From Nitrosospira multiformis ATCC 25196 (GTDB lineage Bacteria; Pseudomonadota; Gammaproteobacteria; Burkholderiales; Nitrosomonadaceae), in NCBI RefSeq assembly GCF_000196355.1, contig NC_007614.1:510001-542000 (forward strand): 32,000 nucleotides of DNA, given 5' to 3'. Positions 2,247 through 17,534 of this stretch are shown here, one piece after another. The translations under genes were made by a program, and so were the position numbers. A model generated the notes under the pieces. That model was not told where the DNA came from. It was given only the letters and a program-made list of their open reading frames with translations, and ran no database searches. Numbering within the stretch: position 1 is the first letter of the stretch; the number at the start of each line of letters is the position of its first letter.

Positions 2247-3188
2247 TCAGGTTGCTCCAGCGAGTCTTGACCCACGCTTGAGGCCAATAAAACTGATTAC
2301 CGCGAGCCCGGCGAGGAGCATGCCATAGGATGACGGTTCGGGAACGCTCGTCGCGAGTTTGGATAAGTCGGCCGTGACAGAAACGCTTGCTTCCAGGCCA
2401 GGGATCAGTGTGCCCAGGAGATTGGGATCGGAGTCATCATGGATGCTGACGAAGCCCGGCACGTCGGTAAGCACGATGCGACCGTTCAAATCCTGAATCT
2501 CGCGCGAATTGCCTTCCGGAAACAGGGACTTGAAGGCATTGATCTGGCTCCCGGATAGATATAGCGGAGAAGCCAGTTCAACCCAGCTTACTCCTTCTGT
2601 AAAAGGCGGCGTCGTCAGAGAACCGGAGTAGCGGAAAGAACCGAGATAATCCGGCAGAAGATTGTTCAGGTTGAAGTGCTCGATATTCAGTGTTTCCTCA
2701 GTAGTTTTCGGCAAATCGGAGAAAATGGGAGCGAGTGCCTGGTTCTTGAAGAGACCTTGCTCGATATCCCGGCCGACCACGAGTAGATTGTTCGCAGCAT
2801 CGCTGAAGACGAGGTGCATTTCCATGGGACTGGCTCGACCGTTTATCAAATGTTCCGAGGGGGTGTGAAAGTGGAATTGAGCAAGGTTCCATTGATGTCC
2901 TGACAACATCAAGGTTCCTCCGCCGGGACTGACATTAGCCCTGATAGTACTTTCGTGATCAGGGGAGCCGTTATTGATCACGGTAAGCGCGGTATCGGAA
3001 TTGAGGTTGAAGTTCAACTTGGGCAAATTTCCGTAATAGGTGCTATTCGAGCGAATATCGATCGGACTTTGTGCTTCCATCAATTCCAGATTGCTCGCCA
3101 GCGTACTCGCATATGCGGTATTGAAGCCCAGCAAGAAAAGGACCGCGGCAAGGACGGCCACCCTCAGGGATCGAGATGTTTCATTCAT
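2247..3188 (-). CDS. secreted alpha-class carbonic anhydrase domain with a C-terminal PEP-CTERM sorting signal (copy 1)
   Basis: Signal peptide MNETSRSLRVAVLAAVLFLLGFNTAYA. Alpha-CA signatures: QSPIDI, AQFHFHTPSEH (two Zn His plus Glu), MEMHLVF (third Zn His), YSGSLTTPP, LNGRIV. C-terminus VPEPSSYGMLLAGLAVISFIGLKRGSR is PEP, then a TM helix, then basic residues. RBS GAGG lies 7 nt before the ATG. Confidence 0.8.
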   Translation of the reverse strand: MNETSRSLRVAVLAAVLFLLGFNTAYASTLASNLELMEAQSPIDIRSNSTYYGNLPKLNFNLNSDTALTVINNGSPDHESTIRANVSPGGGTLMLSGHQWNLAQFHFHTPSEHLINGRASPMEMHLVFSDAANNLLVVGRDIEQGLFKNQALAPIFSDLPKTTEETLNIEHFNLNNLLPDYLGSFRYSGSLTTPPFTEGVSWVELASPLYLSGSQINAFKSLFPEGNSREIQDLNGRIVLTDVPGFVSIHDDSDPNLLGTLIPGLEASVSVTADLSKLATSVPEPSSYGMLLAGLAVISFIGLKRGSRLAGAT

Positions 3189-3570
3189 AAAATGACCTCG
3201 CGAAAATAGATGTTCATAGGGTTTATAGGATGAAAATTCTAAAAGCTTGAGAAATTCCGAATGATCGGTTCCAGCGCTCGTCAGACGGGAGAGCAGCCGG
3301 TTGGAACAGACGGGGAAGATGAGCTGGTGCTTGGCCAGTCGCTGTTGTTATGAGCCACCGAAGCCGGCAGCCGCTCCACGCACGAAACCTGCTGTGGACT
3401 CGAAACCTTGCGAAGAACGACACCCGGATGGTGACGGAAGGGCCCTTTTCATGCAGCCGGTGATGTTACGAACCGTACAGGGCCGAATGGCCTGCTTTGT
3501 CAGACTTTCGGTCAGCCTTCTATTGCAGACTCTTGTTCAAATGGAAGTTGATACACTTCTTCACGTTCGA

Positions 3571-3622
3571 CTCGTCCGTTATGAGTCCCTCCACTTGCAT
3601 GGAGGGACTCATAACGGACGAG
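3571..3622 (-). terminator. 23-bp perfect inverted repeat, 4 nt downstream of the porin stop (3' hairpin; no U-tract)
   Basis: CTCGTCCGTTATGAGTCCCTCCA (3571-3593), loop CTTGCA, then the exact reverse complement (3600-3622). No T-run follows on either strand, so it is not a textbook intrinsic terminator. Confidence 0.45.
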
Positions 3623-3626
3623 ACTG

Positions 3627-5219
3627 TCAGAAGGCAATCTGATACTGCAGGACGAATTGATTCCTGTTTGAAATTTTGTATCCGGCTGAGTTGAATATGG
3701 GCCGGTTCTGGATATCGAAAGTCAGCTTGCTGTTATGTCCCTTGATCAGCCAGTTTATCCCGCCATTGAATACATTCATCTGATCATGCAGACGGTCAAA
3801 ATCCGCGCTGATGAAAGAGAAGTAAGGCATCAACTGGCCATTGTTTCCGCCGAGCAGATCCTTGGGCAGCAGATATCCTATCTGCCCGTACCATTGATTG
3901 CCTGTGCCAAACATGGGAAAGGCATTGCCGCCGGTACTGGCCGGGTTCACCCCGTTGCCGTTCATGCGCAGATAGTTGGGGCCATAATCGGTATTGAAGT
4001 AACCGATATAAGCGGAAATAGCAGTTTCCTTCACCTTGTCTACCGGGGCATCCAGATAAGCTGCAACCGACCACAAATTCATATCGTGAAACTGGGCTGC
4101 TGCCTCCGTAAGGCCGGTCCAGGTCGCATTTTTTTGGGTAATGAAACCTCCTTCCAGGTTCAGGATGCTTTTCTTGCCCAGGTAGGTACCCTGCATGTAT
4201 GGATTGGTCATCGGCTCCTTATCCCAGAAATTCCACATGAAAAACCCCTGGTATTGTTTCCTGTGGCCGGTTCGAGCAAATTGGGCATTTACCGGGGAAA
4301 TGATTTCAGGAGGAAGCCCGGCAGTATTGATGGGGAACGGGTCACTTGCCGTAAAGCGATAATTGAGGGGACCAATCTGCCCTCTGAGGTAGACGCTCAG
4401 CTTACGGTTGAATTGGTCAGTACGATCAGCAGTTGCCTGAGCCACCAGTGGCACATCCATCGTCATGATCGTGCTCACGCTGGGGCTGCTGAAGCGGGAA
4501 AGACCATTGGCCATGACAAGGCCGCCCCCCACGATCATCTGATGTCCCTGGGTCAGCCGTAATTCTCCAAAGGCATCGTGAAAGAAGGATTGAAGTTTTC
4601 TGTTATCGGCGTTCTGACTCAGGAAATTAAAATTGTTCATCCCGTACTGGGTATAAAAATATACCCGGTCAGTCAATTGCCCCTGTAATACAAAACGCGT
4701 ACGGCGCAGGCTGATGTCAGTGACATCGTCCACTGACTCACCCAGCACAGTGGAGCCGGGGTTGGTTTGTTCATACCGCGCCCATACCTGATTCAGGAAG
4801 CCGAATTTGATGTATTGGCTTCCATCCGGATTCAGGTTGAACTTGAACGGGTCCTTCTCTTTCCAGTTCGCGTATCCATATCCTCCCTGTGATTTTTCCT
4901 GGGATTTTTCCACGGATTTCGGGACGTCGCGCACCAGCACGCCCCCCTCGCCCTTTGCCTTGCCGTCAGCAACGACCCCATCCTGGCTCGAGGTGGCCAC
5001 AGGTTTTGCCGGCTTCTCCGGAACTTTTTCAAAGGACCCCATGCGGACACGTCCTTCTCCAGGCTCGGCATAAATCTGTTTTGTTTTGGTATCGACATAG
5101 AGGTCGATGACGTAAGACGCTGCGGTATCGGGCTCTGAAGACGCTGGTTTTTCTTCGGCATACAGCGGAGCTGCAAGCAGGCAACCCGATAACAACACAA
5201 GCGAAGGTTTATATTTCAT
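3627..5219 (-). CDS. outer-membrane beta-barrel porin, probably the phosphate-selective porin O/P-like family
   Basis: Signal peptide MKYKPSLVLLSGCLLAAPLYA/EE. Alternating beta-strand pattern. C-terminal ...FVLQYQIAF (terminal aromatic residue, typical of OMPs). The motif ISLRRTRFVLQGQL resembles the RRARL motif of porin O/P proteins. RBS AGGGAG precedes the ATG. Confidence 0.7.
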   Translation of the reverse strand: MKYKPSLVLLSGCLLAAPLYAEEKPASSEPDTAASYVIDLYVDTKTKQIYAEPGEGRVRMGSFEKVPEKPAKPVATSSQDGVVADGKAKGEGGVLVRDVPKSVEKSQEKSQGGYGYANWKEKDPFKFNLNPDGSQYIKFGFLNQVWARYEQTNPGSTVLGESVDDVTDISLRRTRFVLQGQLTDRVYFYTQYGMNNFNFLSQNADNRKLQSFFHDAFGELRLTQGHQMIVGGGLVMANGLSRFSSPSVSTIMTMDVPLVAQATADRTDQFNRKLSVYLRGQIGPLNYRFTASDPFPINTAGLPPEIISPVNAQFARTGHRKQYQGFFMWNFWDKEPMTNPYMQGTYLGKKSILNLEGGFITQKNATWTGLTEAAAQFHDMNLWSVAAYLDAPVDKVKETAISAYIGYFNTDYGPNYLRMNGNGVNPASTGGNAFPMFGTGNQWYGQIGYLLPKDLLGGNNGQLMPYFSFISADFDRLHDQMNVFNGGINWLIKGHNSKLTFDIQNRPIFNSAGYKISNRNQFVLQYQIAF

Positions 5220-5261
5220 TTGACGCTCCCTTTCTGGTTATGCCAAGTGCTTAATTACCCA

Positions 5262-5338
5262 CATTCAAAAGTGGTAAAGGCTGAGGTTAGGGGGGAAAAA
5301 TAACATGGCATATGTCAAGAAAATGTCATTCAAAAGTG
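5262..5338. repeat. two exact copies of the 12-mer CATTCAAAAGTG in the porin upstream region
   Basis: Copies at 5262-5273 and 5327-5338. A third partial copy, TTCAAAAGTGAAG, lies at 6842-6854 in another intergenic region of the same cluster. Confidence 0.5.
5312..5328. promoter_or_regulatory. tandem direct repeat ATGTCA-N5-ATGTCA (11-bp period) upstream of the porin gene; candidate response-regulator site
   Basis: ATGTCAAGAAAATGTCAT lies 92 nt or more upstream of the porin ATG. The same TGTCA-N6-TGTCA architecture occurs at 7866-7885. Confidence 0.4.
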
Positions 5339-5724
5339 AAGAAATAGTGAATTTCCTACGAAAAAGCAGGAGAATAAGCAAAATGAAATACAGTATATAC
5401 ACGGCGGAATCCGTATGCAAAACGTCTATGACAAGGTATTTTTGGAAAAGTCGGGTCTCTTGGGGTAAAGAATTACATTGGAAAATTGCAACGAATCCTG
5501 GGGTAAACTGATCCGTTTCGTTGGAAATGAGCGAACAGCTGAAGGCTCTGGCGGGGAAAACAGAAGGGCGAGCTGCCGGATTCTGAGGGGGGATGGGACG
5601 TAACGACGCGAAACCAGACGCTGGGGAATGAGGGGGAGCATCCCAAAAGCCAAAAGCGGGAATGAGTCCTCGCTCCGCACCCGTCAACAGTAGAAAACAG
5701 GCGTTCGGGCCCGATTCCGGCCTC

Positions 5725-6123
5725 TCAACCGCCGCCCGCACCCCCCGCTGAAATATTGGTATCTACGTCCGGGTTTGGAGGACTGGGGGCAGGCGCCACA
5801 AAGAAGCGGAGAATTCTATGCAGGAGGTCTTTCCGAGGCTCGATATCCTGCGGACAGGGAGCGGTACTTTTTTCTGCGGCCTGTCCCTCTTCTGGCGCAT
5901 TCTCGTGCCCGGCTGCCGCTTTCCCATTCGGAGAGACGGCATTTCCAGAGGTCGCTTCCTGACAGTCGACCTGCACAGCGTTCTGATGAGATGCAATCAG
6001 TGTCTGGAAAGCGGATGGAGAGGGGCGTTCATCCCCGGGCATATCGGCAGCGATAGGAGGGGACAGGACAGCGGCCGAAAAAAACAGCAACCCACCGAAG
6101 AGGATGGAACGGAAAATGCTCAT
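5725..6123 (-). CDS. small secreted protein of unknown function with the C-terminal NISAGGAGGG module (paralog A)
   Basis: Start chosen at MSIFRSILFGGLLFFSAAVLSPPIAA (signal peptide), with AAGGAGG about 9-11 nt upstream. The track start at 6159 has no RBS. The C-terminal ~43 aa is homologous to the neighbouring ORF. Confidence 0.55.
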   Translation of the reverse strand: MSIFRSILFGGLLFFSAAVLSPPIAADMPGDERPSPSAFQTLIASHQNAVQVDCQEATSGNAVSPNGKAAAGHENAPEEGQAAEKSTAPCPQDIEPRKDLLHRILRFFVAPAPSPPNPDVDTNISAGGAGGG

Positions 6124-6177
6124 CAAGCTCAACCCCTCCTTGGTTGGAGCAGGCGCCATCTGCTGCTTAAAACGGAA

Positions 6178-6663
6178 TCAGCCTCCCGCGCCGCCCACGG
6201 AAATATTCTCGTCCATCTCTCGATTGGGTCCACGGGGCGTATCAGGTCCATATAGGATACGCACCATTTTGCAGAGAAAATCCTCCTGCTCGGGCGACGC
6301 ATACTTGCATGAACCGGAGCCCGACTCGGAACCCTGCGCAGGCGCCTCCCATCCCCCGGGAGCATTTGCCCGGTCTGTTGCCTGATCTGTTTGCTGGGGC
6401 ACAGCAGCTTTATCACTCTCTCCCTTTTCAGTCCTGTTTCCCTTTTCTTCATGGGTCCCCGGGGGAAGCTCCCAACCCAGCGCATCCTTTTCCAGCGATT
6501 GATTCCGCTGGTTCGTATCGACAAATATATCCTGTACCCATCTGTTTGCGCGATCTGGCAGATCCGATTGCGCGTGCGACATTCCTGCAGCACCCGAAAT
6601 CATGATGCCGGCAAATAATGCAGTCTGCATCTTCCGCATTGTCAGTATCCGTGGACGTTTCAT
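6178..6663 (-). CDS. small secreted protein of unknown function with the C-terminal NISVGGAGG module (paralog B)
   Basis: Signal peptide ...MRKMQTALFAGIMISGAAGMSHA/QS. The middle is low-complexity and acidic or polar. The C-terminus CKYASPEQEDFLCKMVRILYGPDTPRGPNREMDENISVGGAGG aligns with paralog A. The exact start is uncertain (6663, 6639 or 6630). Confidence 0.55.
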   Translation of the reverse strand: MKRPRILTMRKMQTALFAGIMISGAAGMSHAQSDLPDRANRWVQDIFVDTNQRNQSLEKDALGWELPPGTHEEKGNRTEKGESDKAAVPQQTDQATDRANAPGGWEAPAQGSESGSGSCKYASPEQEDFLCKMVRILYGPDTPRGPNREMDENISVGGAGG

Positions 6664-6737
6664 GGCCTGCCTTCGTTCGAATGAGGGATAGAGCGCATGG
6701 TGCGCGCTTGAGGGTGCGCGGTCAAGGCAGATTTTGC

Positions 6738-6753
6738 GGATTTGTCGAAATCC
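6738..6753. promoter_or_regulatory. palindrome GGATTT-GTCG-AAATCC upstream of the small-protein gene pair; candidate operator
   Basis: Perfect 6-bp arms with a 4-bp spacer, about 75-90 nt upstream of the start at 6663 and downstream of the CA2 hairpin. Confidence 0.3.
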
Positions 6754-6794
6754 TCAAAACTCCGGGGGGAAGGGGGCAAACAAGACTGTTTGAA

Positions 6795-6827
6795 GTGGAT
6801 GAGTACCTACCTTAGGTACTCATCCAC
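6795..6827 (-). terminator. 15-bp perfect hairpin downstream of the second carbonic anhydrase gene
   Basis: GTGGATGAGTACCTA, loop CCT, TAGGTACTCATCCAC. It lies 60 nt after the stop at 6887. On the minus strand it is followed by TTCAAACAGTCTTGTTTG. Confidence 0.5.
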
Positions 6828-6886
6828 GTTGCTTCACGATTTTCAAAAGTGAAGGTTACACGGATCCGAACACGATACAGCCTGCC

Positions 6887-7753
6887 TCATGCAACAGAAC
6901 CGGCGGGTACATCACTGGTTAACGGCCTGCTTTTACCCCTGGCAACAAATGCCATGAGGCATAATCCTGCCAGCATCATCGCGTAAGTTTCAGGTTCGGG
7001 AACGGCGGTGACGAATCCAGGCACATCCGTGAGGACGATGCGTCCGTTGAGATCCTGGATTCCGCGTGCATCCCCTTCGGGAAACAGCGAGCTGAACGCA
7101 TTGATTTGCTCCGAGGACATGAATAGCGGCTGCGATAACATCACCCAGTTGACACCTTCAGAAAACGGCGGTGTGGTGAGCGAACCCGAATAGCGGAAGG
7201 ATTCCAGGTTGGAGGGAATGAGTGTATTGAGGTTGAAGTGGTCGATATGGAGTGTCTCGGAAGTGTTCTGCGGAATCTGGGAGAAAATCGGATCGAGGTC
7301 GCTGTTGAATGCGCCTGCCTGAACCCAGCGGCCAACCACGAGAAGATCCTTATTGCTGTCGCTGAAGACGAGATGCATTTCCATTGGAAATGCCACGCCA
7401 TTCAACAAATGCTCGGAAGGGGTATGAAAGTGAAACTGGGCAAGCTCCCAGTCATGGCCGGAAAGCGTGAGAGAACCTGCACCAGGATTGACATTACCTC
7501 GTACTGCGGTTTTTTCTGGGTCGGGGGAACCGTTGTTGATGACATCAAGTGACGTGTCGGAACTCAGGTTGAAGTTGAGCGCCGGCAGACGACCGAAATA
7601 GGTGCTATCCGAGCGAAAGTCGATGGGGCTTTGCGACTTCATCGCCGCCTGTGCCGATGGAGTGACTTCCGCGTGTGACGTTGACATTCCAAACACCAGA
7701 AGGGCTGAAAAGAGTGCGGTTTGACGCGATAAGCGTAACAGTGACATATTCAT
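6887..7753 (-). CDS. secreted alpha-class carbonic anhydrase domain with a C-terminal PEP-CTERM sorting signal (copy 2)
   Basis: Start moved to MNMSLLRLSRQTALFSALLVFGMSTSHA (signal peptide), with GGAG 5 nt upstream. Same alpha-CA motifs as copy 1: QSPIDF, AQFHFHTPSEH, MEMHLVF, YSGSLTTPP, LNGRIV. C-terminus AVPEPETYAMMLAGLCLMAFVARGKSR. Confidence 0.8.
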   Translation of the reverse strand: MNMSLLRLSRQTALFSALLVFGMSTSHAEVTPSAQAAMKSQSPIDFRSDSTYFGRLPALNFNLSSDTSLDVINNGSPDPEKTAVRGNVNPGAGSLTLSGHDWELAQFHFHTPSEHLLNGVAFPMEMHLVFSDSNKDLLVVGRWVQAGAFNSDLDPIFSQIPQNTSETLHIDHFNLNTLIPSNLESFRYSGSLTTPPFSEGVNWVMLSQPLFMSSEQINAFSSLFPEGDARGIQDLNGRIVLTDVPGFVTAVPEPETYAMMLAGLCLMAFVARGKSRPLTSDVPAGSVA

Positions 7754-7865
7754 CAAGTCTCCAGAATTATGACGCGCATTAGGTGCGCGCCGGGTTATGA
7801 ATAATGAATAAGATGTTGTTGCCACTTTAAACTAGCACAGCAGTTGTGAACTTAATGTCCCTGAA

Positions 7866-16808: not shown

Positions 16809-17534
16809 ATGAATCCCAAGCTTTTGAGACGGTTATCCAGCCTGGCAATAATAGCCACATCCCTTGCTTTTACCGTTCCCGCGGCTGCATATACTTTTCG
16901 GGATGATCCCTCTTCTACCTGGGGCGGCGACTCATTAACCGCAGCCCATACCAATGGGAACGTCTACACGGTCGAAAATCTTTTGGTCCAAAACACCACC
17001 GCGAATTCCCTGCCAGAATTGAACTTCACGATTCCTTTCGCATGGCAGAAGGTCGGCGAGACTTACTTGCCCATGGAATGGCGCAATGACCTGAACGGGT
17101 GGTACACCAGCAATTTCAACGATACTGGAACCAGCCTGACTGTTAAATTAACAAGTCCGGTTGCGGACACCGTAGCCATGGGGGAACTTGCGGATTTGAG
17201 CGGAAGCCGGCAACTCCCGTTGACGGAGCCATGTTTCTCCGGCTCGCCCAGTTGTCAGAGTGGAGTAGGCCGGCCGCCCGAAACCGGTAATACAACGGAT
17301 CTTATCCCTGTTTTTTCATTAGGTTCATTTGCACCAAACGAGGCAAAACGTTTTGATGTCTCGTTCACCTATACTTTCGGGGATAATAGGGCTGGGACCG
17401 ACGGCGCAACAACTTCGTTTTTTGGCTATACCGTTTCTCCCATTCCAGAACCGGGAACCTACGCCATGTTTCTAGTCGGTCTGGGCATGGTGGTTTTTAT
17501 GGCGCGCCCCAGGAAAGCTGGGATGGGTTCATAG
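16809..17534 (+). CDS. PEP-CTERM-sorted secreted protein of unknown function
   Basis: Signal peptide MNPKLLRRLSSLAIIATSLAFTVPAAA. C-terminus SPIPEPGTYAMFLVGLGMVVFMARPRKAG is PEP, then a TM helix, then basic residues. I do not recognise any domain in the ~180-aa body. Confidence 0.75.
   Translation: MNPKLLRRLSSLAIIATSLAFTVPAAAYTFRDDPSSTWGGDSLTAAHTNGNVYTVENLLVQNTTANSLPELNFTIPFAWQKVGETYLPMEWRNDLNGWYTSNFNDTGTSLTVKLTSPVADTVAMGELADLSGSRQLPLTEPCFSGSPSCQSGVGRPPETGNTTDLIPVFSLGSFAPNEAKRFDVSFTYTFGDNRAGTDGATTSFFGYTVSPIPEPGTYAMFLVGLGMVVFMARPRKAGMGS

Follow-up and report, generated by a model that had tools for sequence, protein, structure and literature searches.

Genes B and A of Nitrosospira multiformis ATCC 25196 lie next to each other in a 32-kb window of contig NC_007614.1, which is the whole stretch of DNA analysed here and the reference for all positions unless another locus is named. 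They encode small exported proteins that diverge in their signal and middle regions and end in a common module of ~45 residues. As judged from their sequences, the proteins ending in this module are a genus-level orphan family with a motif of its own, undescribed and new at the level of both family and motif. The function we favour for the tail is docking to a partner in the cell envelope through a motif that takes in the free C-terminus, possibly in periplasmic bicarbonate or pH handling. This reading is tentative, and we would give it a probability of about 0.4.

The B and A genes and their common C-terminal module

The two genes and the parts of them discussed below are as follows.

6178..6663, minus strand: gene B, a 161-residue exported, acidic, disordered protein ending in GPNREMDENISVGGAGG and the stop
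6571-6663, minus strand: signal peptide of gene B, approximately residues 1-31
6178..6318, minus strand: tail module of B, the last 46 codons and the TGA stop
5725..6159, minus strand: gene A, an open reading frame of 144 residues from the first ATG, ending in PNPDVDTNISAGGAGGG and the stop
5725..5865, minus strand: tail module of A, the last 46 codons and the stop

The original prediction had described two adjacent open reading frames (ORFs) of 132 and about 161 residues, each with a signal peptide, a divergent low-complexity middle of acidic or polar character, two cysteines and a conserved C-terminus of ~43 residues. Both ORFs are present on the minus strand, and A comes to 132-133 residues after revision of its start. 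The true start of A is probably the TTG at 6126 or the ATG at 6123, giving 133 or 132 residues, because these codons fit an AAGGAGG Shine-Dalgarno sequence and the N-termini of the A orthologues, which start near MSIF/MKSTF. An alternative start of B at M9 would give 153 residues, as in protein P0012 (related proteins and loci are cited by P and L numbers). By inspection, the N-termini of both proteins combine a basic n-region and a hydrophobic core with a cleavage site of the AxA type and were accordingly read as the Sec-type signal peptides that had been predicted, with cleavage between MSHA and QSD in B and between PIAA and DMP in A.

A word-indexed search gave 11 orthologue clusters for A and 22 for B. 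Their source is given as Nitrosospira multiformis or Nitrosomonadales, and they carry either no name or that of "hypothetical protein." In the orthologue alignments the indels are whole-codon, the signal and middle regions are divergent and the tails are invariant. The middle regions of the family have an isoelectric point (pI) of ~4.4 and are made up to 50–85% of G, S, P, A, Q and T; with a mean pairwise identity of 0.27-0.34 in the 70 residues before the tail, they agree well with the divergent and acidic middle described at first. Short [ST]-x-G-W motifs repeat within the B-type middles, and some Nitrosovibrio-type A proteins are lipoprotein-like, for example P0066 with a LASC lipobox. Each of the window proteins does contain two cysteines (C66 and C102 of A in the numbering of the 144-residue ORF; C119 and C131 of B), but the residue is not universal in the family, three representatives of which (P0046, P0050 and P0060) have no cysteine in the module.

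The tails of A and B are 37% identical across 52 residues (BLASTP E = 3e-9), a similarity which by this alignment is more than chance. Over the last 40 residues, the mean pairwise identity is 0.61 among A proteins, 0.71 among B proteins and 0.55 between the two. The module of B runs in order through Cys-x11-Cys, an amphipathic helix, a GPDTPRGPN turn, D-x-N-I-S and GGAGG, and the family consensus is (C)-x8-[ED]-x-[FL]-[LF]-x-[KR]-x-[IV]-R-[IF]-[FL]-x-G-P-D-x-P-x-G-P-[ND]-x-D-[VM]-D-x-N-I-S-A-G-G-A-[GA]-G(-G)-stop. The B type ends in GGAGG, usually with C-x11-C, and the A type in GGA[GA]GG. A conserved Cys, or G-W/S-G-S-C, marks the module boundary, and the spacing between the Gly/Ala end and the stop codon is constant across the family. 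When the structure of B alone was modelled with AlphaFold2 on the B alignment, the mean confidence (pLDDT) was 50, and the sole confident element was a helix at residues 129-138 (near 70), which is the conserved amphipathic segment; the remainder was predicted to be disordered. The succession of amphipathic helix, Pro-rich turn and Gly-rich end that had been read from the letters is consistent with this model.

To assess the breadth of the family, a profile was built from the 46-residue tail, and 1.84 billion representative proteins were searched with it in HMMER (E <= 1e-3). The search returned 36 matches, of which 33 are true members with lengths of 65–292 residues (mostly 100–170), and in all 33 the module reaches the last residue. 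The tail thus has homologues beyond the window pair and defines a family, whose genes co-occur with those of carbonic anhydrases and a porin. The other three matches (P0053, P0063 and P0067) are long repeat proteins scoring via summed weak partial matches and were set aside as non-members; P0067, with 1875 residues, matches only profile positions 32–45 in this manner. A pattern scan of one genome per species (185,579 species) gave 28 loci, all of them in Nitrosospira or Nitrosovibrio except for one in a metagenome-assembled genome of an "uncultured beta proteobacterium." No match to A or B was obtained in Pfam (E <= 10), NCBIfam (E <= 0.1) or the PDB by sequence profile (E <= 10), in line with the earlier statement that no family could be assigned. 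Derivation of the tail from a TPR_12 repeat, or mimicry of it, was an idea taken from P0063, through which the tail helix appears superficially like helix B of TPR_12, and from the tetratricopeptide repeat (TPR) genes adjacent in some loci. It was rejected: the tail hidden Markov model gave negative bit scores against four neighbouring TPR proteins (hmmsearch), and no Pfam TPR was found in A or B.

Selection on the tail was estimated from codon alignments of ~30 loci, using the last 30 codons of B and the last 22 codons of A. The dN/dS ratio was 0.14 for B and 0.11 for A, with synonymous sites saturated (pS ~0.68), and the last 14 codons vary almost solely at third positions. Since synonymous change is saturated and the peptide is near-constant, selection acts on the peptide and not on the DNA or RNA. 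An RNA element was rejected on this ground, the synonymous variation excluding constraint at the DNA or RNA level, and with an Rfam scan of window positions 5000–7200 that gave no match. On this codon evidence, A and B are real genes with conserved frames, and their tail is under protein-level purifying selection.

A and B are predicted to be Sec-exported, acidic and intrinsically disordered envelope proteins, restricted to the Nitrosospira/Nitrosovibrio lineage, and the C-terminal module is the one part of them that is strongly constrained. If the tail is a docking motif, it would be a short linear motif that folds upon binding a folded partner in the envelope, the free C-terminal carboxylate would be part of the recognised surface, and the variable acidic chain would be the cargo being tethered. 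The free end is likely to matter because the module ends at the last residue in 33/33 true members. Candidate partners are the porin, the carbonic anhydrases and a secreted TPR protein encoded beside B in several species. The identity between A and B is the same within a genome (0.55) as between genomes (0.56), which indicates a duplication older than the radiation of the genus and no gene conversion. Both paralogues probably act together or on two related sites, because both have been kept since before the genus diversified.

Organisation of the locus and its neighbouring genes

The order across the genus is PGM, G6PD, a PEP-CTERM alpha-carbonic anhydrase (alpha-CA), B, A, the porin, in some cases a second PEP-CTERM alpha-CA, and CoxB; B is followed by A as a tandem in nearly every locus. 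The following features surround the pair in the window.

6887..7825, minus strand: CA1, an alpha-carbonic anhydrase with PEP-CTERM (Pfam Carb_anhydrase 1.3e-32 and PEP-CTERM 2.1e-7; NCBIfam PEP-CTERM also)
6795..6827: perfect palindrome with 15-nt arms, between the CA1 stop and the B start
5698..5713, minus strand: terminator-like hairpin and T run, 12 nt after the A stop
3627..5219, minus strand: porin, 530 residues, OprO/OprP-type beta-barrel, probably a separate transcription unit
3571-3622: perfect inverted repeat with 23-nt arms directly downstream of the porin, a strong candidate terminator
2247..3188, minus strand: CA2, a second PEP-CTERM alpha-carbonic anhydrase, at this position in some species only

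The gap between B and A is 18 nt in the window. Among 17 loci measured, one is an outlier at 305 nt; in the other 16 the two genes overlap slightly or are separated by up to 94 nt. The distance from A to the next gene, the porin, is 200–1000 nt across loci, and in the window it is 505 bp (5220-5724) of non-coding DNA, with a promoter-like site at 5421-5392 on the minus strand and no Rfam match. The hairpin at 5698..5713 would end a bicistronic B-A transcript, and the palindrome at 6795..6827, which is conserved in close strains, is the probable terminator of the CA1 gene and would separate it from the B-A unit. Because the B-A gap is small, a terminator-like site follows A, and hairpins follow CA1 and the porin, B and A are predicted to be an operon-like, bicistronic pair. 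That CA1, B, the porin and CA2 have an operator or promoter in common in their upstream regions was also considered and rejected, as the search yielded only terminator hairpins and paralogous tail DNA. The region upstream of B is conserved among close strains only. In Nitrosospira sp. Nsp14 (L025 7686-8624), B is a pseudogene, interrupted by a stop and altered in its final residue (GGAGD). A has been lost, and all that is left of the porin is a frameshifted piece of ~90 residues from its C-terminus, but CA1 is intact; by these sequences, the decay of B, A and the porin seems to have been joint in this one strain.

CA1 is syntenic in most of the Nitrosospira loci examined. Alpha-type ("eukaryotic-type") carbonic anhydrases with a C-terminal PEP-CTERM exosortase domain represent an unusual anchoring or sorting for a periplasmic carbonic anhydrase. 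The window encodes a third PEP-CTERM protein (16809-17534, plus strand, 241 residues, no other domain), and another follows a paralogous porin in Nitrosospira sp. Nsp5 (L036 8230-9039).

The porin gave no match in Pfam, and its full-length match to the NCBIfam ExtI porin model (1.9e-16) is below the model cutoff. It has more than 1900 homologues under the UniRef name "Short chain amide porin," a few of which carry PF07396 Porin_O_P. In its AlphaFold2 model (mean pLDDT 72.6), a barrel is accompanied by an N-terminal hairpin (37–64) and a disordered linker (70–117), and the top Foldseek match was OprO (4rjw; E = 4.6e-12) with modest TM scores of 0.46/0.55 and an identity of ~10%. Homologues that are ~60% identical occur in Bacteroidota (Cytophagales/Chryseolinea; L033 7001-8377 and L035 7001-8335), where genes for a SulP transporter and a beta-carbonic anhydrase immediately precede them, with DabA/DabB nearby in L035; these two loci are mutually syntenic and count as roughly one observation. 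Such identity is remarkably high across phyla and suggests horizontal transfer. From the gene context, the porin may be an outer-membrane channel, so far uncharacterised, that is connected with the uptake of inorganic carbon. A Nitrosospira paralogue of the porin adjoins a NitT/TauT-type ABC transporter, without tail genes. The porin family thus appears to be linked repeatedly, by gene neighbourhood, to the uptake of anions and inorganic carbon. In comparison with the Bacteroidota homologues, the Nitrosospira porin has the extra N-terminal beta-hairpin (IDLYVDTKTKQIY...) and the disordered linker.

A secreted TPR (TPR_12) protein of the kinesin light chain (KLC) type, 320–418 residues long, is encoded between CA1 and B in four loci (L003 701-1663, L020 6276-7532, L023 6214-7443 and L026 6152-7336), and at the same place between the carbonic anhydrase and B, L037 has a 407-residue ORF without a Pfam match (2799-4022). 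No TPR gene is found next to B-A in the window itself. Free C-terminal peptides and W-acidic peptides are frequent ligands of TPR domains. Because of this property, and because the B-type proteins carry G-W-E motifs, the TPR protein is a candidate partner.

Weighing the readings of the tail

The most likely setting of a docking tail, as inferred from the neighbourhood only, would be periplasmic inorganic-carbon or pH handling, because PEP-CTERM alpha-carbonic anhydrases are found there together with an OprO/P-like porin whose homologues are linked to SulP, beta-carbonic anhydrase and DabA. Several observations weigh against the docking reading. CA1, B-A, the porin and CA2 are probably separate transcription units, to judge from the hairpins. 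NpAV keeps B and A without an adjacent porin, Nsp8 has no adjacent carbonic anhydrase, and Nv17 has one tail gene and the porin without an adjacent carbonic anhydrase; by these exceptions, none of the neighbours is indispensable on its own. Gene order kept inside one genus argues only weakly for a functional link, since the flanking housekeeping genes PGM, G6PD and CoxB are equally syntenic. For the known binders of C-terminal peptides, PDZ domains and tail-specific proteases among them, a terminal Gly at P0 is also unusual.

A further point against it comes from a published shotgun proteome of N. multiformis ATCC 25196. Locus tags of ATCC 25196 were inferred by accession arithmetic from the anchors PGM (Nmul_A0467, Q2YBU6) and zwf (Q2YBU7), and the arithmetic was checked across 69 steps against Nmul_A0398 (Q2YC15). 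By this inferred mapping, B is Nmul_A0464 (Q2YBU9) and A is Nmul_A0463 (Q2YBV0) in the cluster Nmul_A0461-0465 (Q2YBU8-Q2YBV2), and the accessions Q2YBU8-Q2YBV3, corresponding to CoxB, the porin, B, A and the two carbonic anhydrases, are absent from the detected-protein tables of PMC5960693. This absence is a weak negative, and it fits a cluster that is silent in standard ammonia-replete or ammonia-starved culture. In the literature searched, no paper citing Nmul_A0461-0465 was found, and a paper on ammonia-oxidising bacteria of tea soil (PMC12475048) held no evidence on the A and B genes. The same proteome lists two orphans among the most abundant proteins of N. multiformis, Q2Y9X8 at 0.69% and Q2Y9X6 at 0.81% (PMC5960693). 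They were considered as A and B and rejected, being Nmul_A1140 and Nmul_A1142, respectively, which are near-adjacent, uncharacterised and unrelated to the B-A locus.

Modification of or attachment through the tail is an unlikely alternative to docking. The Asn or Ser of D-x-N-I-S-A would be glycosylated, N-linked by PglB or O-linked by PglL, or the Gly-rich end would be processed or ligated to an envelope component. Both window proteins have D-x-N-I-S intact, a string that conforms to the extended bacterial sequon, as had been proposed, D/E-x-N-x-S/T is retained in ~80% of the family representatives, and the segment is flexible and exposed in the AlphaFold2 model. In addition, many Betaproteobacteria O-glycosylate Ser in low-complexity Ala/Gly/Pro regions by the PglL-type route. 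The proposal of an N-glycosylation sequon is weakened, however, by several family members, where the sequon is broken in otherwise conserved tails to DTSLS (L001, P0064 and P0065), DTSIS (P0052), NIA (P0043), NVA (L023), NIG (P0051 and L013) or NIQ (P0066). Conservation is about even over all positions of the tail, and the sequon does not stand out among them. The conserved neighbourhood contains no glycosyltransferase, general scans of the window gave no STT3/PglB-like gene, and PglB-type transferases are not known from Betaproteobacteria.

We consider it just as unlikely that the tail binds a metal, probably Ca2+, in which case N/D-x-D-x-D-x-N-x-S and the terminal carboxylate would chelate a hard cation and the acidic disordered chain would add low-affinity buffering of cations and carbonate beside the carbonic anhydrases. 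The alternating acidic and amide side chains of P-[ND]-x-D-[VM]-D-x-N-I-S are nearly invariant, the middles are strongly acidic as given above, and alpha-carbonic anhydrases and an anion porin are gene neighbours; acidic disordered secreted proteins paired with alpha-carbonic anhydrases are typical of carbonate-handling systems. The known patterns nevertheless fail. An EF-hand or RTX reading of DVDTNISAGGAGG was rejected by inspection: D-V-D-T-N-I-S-A-G-G-A-G has Ile at position 6 and Gly at position 12, the Gly of DxDxDG is absent, and the RTX pattern (GGxGxDxUx) finds one partial, off-register GGAGG with no Asp after it and no repetition. No Ca-binding Pfam family was matched at E <= 10, and metal binding would leave the equally conserved amphipathic helix and Pro turn unexplained.

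That A and B are pre-pro-peptides is rather improbable. After Sec export, the variable middle would be a pro-region, and the conserved C-terminal peptide would be cleaved off as a diffusible signal or effector. The layout of a signal peptide, a fast-evolving middle and an invariant C-terminal peptide speaks for it, as do the disordered and protease-accessible chain of the AlphaFold2 model and the Cys or G-W/S-G-S-C at the module boundary, which could mark a processing site. Against this, none of the ~30 loci has a gene for a dedicated protease, receptor, transporter or modification enzyme, the conserved block of ~45 residues is far longer than typical released peptides, and the arrangement has no known precedent in Gram-negative chemolithotrophs.

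It is very improbable that the tail is a sorting signal of a new kind that takes the proteins to the outer membrane or the cell surface, for example by being threaded through or handed to the adjacent porin. The module is strictly C-terminal, a porin and PEP-CTERM-sorted proteins are nearby, and the lipoprotein-like character of some A-type members (LASC in P0066) would suit such a route. The original prediction had likewise named a sorting or attachment signal, which found no support: no hydrophobic segment or basic cluster follows the motif, so that the combination of motif, transmembrane helix and basic cluster is lacking, and no such family was detected. PF07589 and the NCBIfam PEP-CTERM models match both flanking carbonic anhydrases and are silent on A and B. 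No sorting enzyme gene is linked, and NpAV retains the genes without an adjacent porin. The weakest reading, that A and B are non-functional, being chance ORFs or a conserved DNA or RNA element, has the absence of peptides from one proteome and of annotated domains in A and B on its side and a negligible chance of being right, given a frame and stop position kept genus-wide, saturated synonymous sites, dN/dS ~0.1, whole-codon indels and no Rfam match.

Docking thus remains the reading we prefer for the tail. In a more specific form, A and B would be periplasmic scaffold or linker proteins whose docking tail arranges the PEP-CTERM alpha-carbonic anhydrases around a bicarbonate porin of the OprO/P-like type, which we consider very doubtful. 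If true, it would be a Nitrosospira-specific module of the envelope for inorganic carbon and proton buffering, a periplasmic counterpart of CsoS2 and EPYC1, the disordered linkers by which carbon-concentrating machinery is put together, and would help carboxysome-less ammonia oxidisers to withstand their own acid production. Among ammonia-oxidising bacteria, Nitrosospira dominate in many agricultural soils, where they drive the loss of fertiliser nitrogen and the emission of N2O. The A/B pair offers a testable lead to bicarbonate and proton handling at the envelope of carboxysome-less autotrophs. It also marks the lineage cleanly, and its tail may represent a new kind of motif for C-terminal recognition; the novelty lies in the orphan protein family and its motif and not in a mechanism.

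Comparison with known systems

The anion-specific OprO/OprP porins compare with the neighbouring porin only. OprO is the best structural match of the porin model, and some porin homologues carry PF07396, but the Nitrosospira porin differs from it in the low identity and TM scores given above and in its extra N-terminal hairpin and disordered linker. The A/B tail itself shares its C-terminal position and Gly-richness with the signals of the PEP-CTERM/exosortase, GlyGly-CTERM/rhombosortase and LPXTG/sortase systems, and true PEP-CTERM proteins flank the pair. Those signals are tripartite, whereas A and B stop right after GGAGG, without a transmembrane helix or basic cluster. The precursors of Bacillus Phr/CSF and of plant CLE, RGF and IDA have the same layout of signal peptide, divergent middle and conserved C-terminus, but in them 5–15 residues are conserved as against ~45 in A and B, which also lack linked receptor or processing genes. 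CsoS2 and EPYC1 resemble A and B in having a disordered chain with a short conserved amphipathic helix in the inorganic-carbon context of an autotroph. They are, in contrast, cytoplasmic or plastid, basic, multi-repeat and Rubisco-binding proteins, and A and B are exported and acidic with a single C-terminal motif and no homology to them.

The closest likeness is to C-terminal docking motifs recognised together with their free carboxylate, such as EEVD of Hsp70/Hsp90 bound by TPR clamps and the peroxisomal signal PTS1 bound by PEX5, in which the extreme C-terminus is likewise conserved on a variable or disordered chain. The C-terminal Y-acidic motif of JIP1, bound by the TPR of kinesin light chain, and the YxF tails of outer-membrane proteins, bound by the PDZ domain of DegS, belong to the same class. 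The fixed distance to the stop and the acidic residues near the end are shared with A and B, and a KLC-type TPR gene stands beside B in several species. The sequences are unrelated, and the A/B module differs in its length of ~45 residues including a helix and in ending with Gly/Ala rather than with hydrophobic or acidic residues. By this analogy, the A/B tail would work most like a C-terminal linear docking motif.

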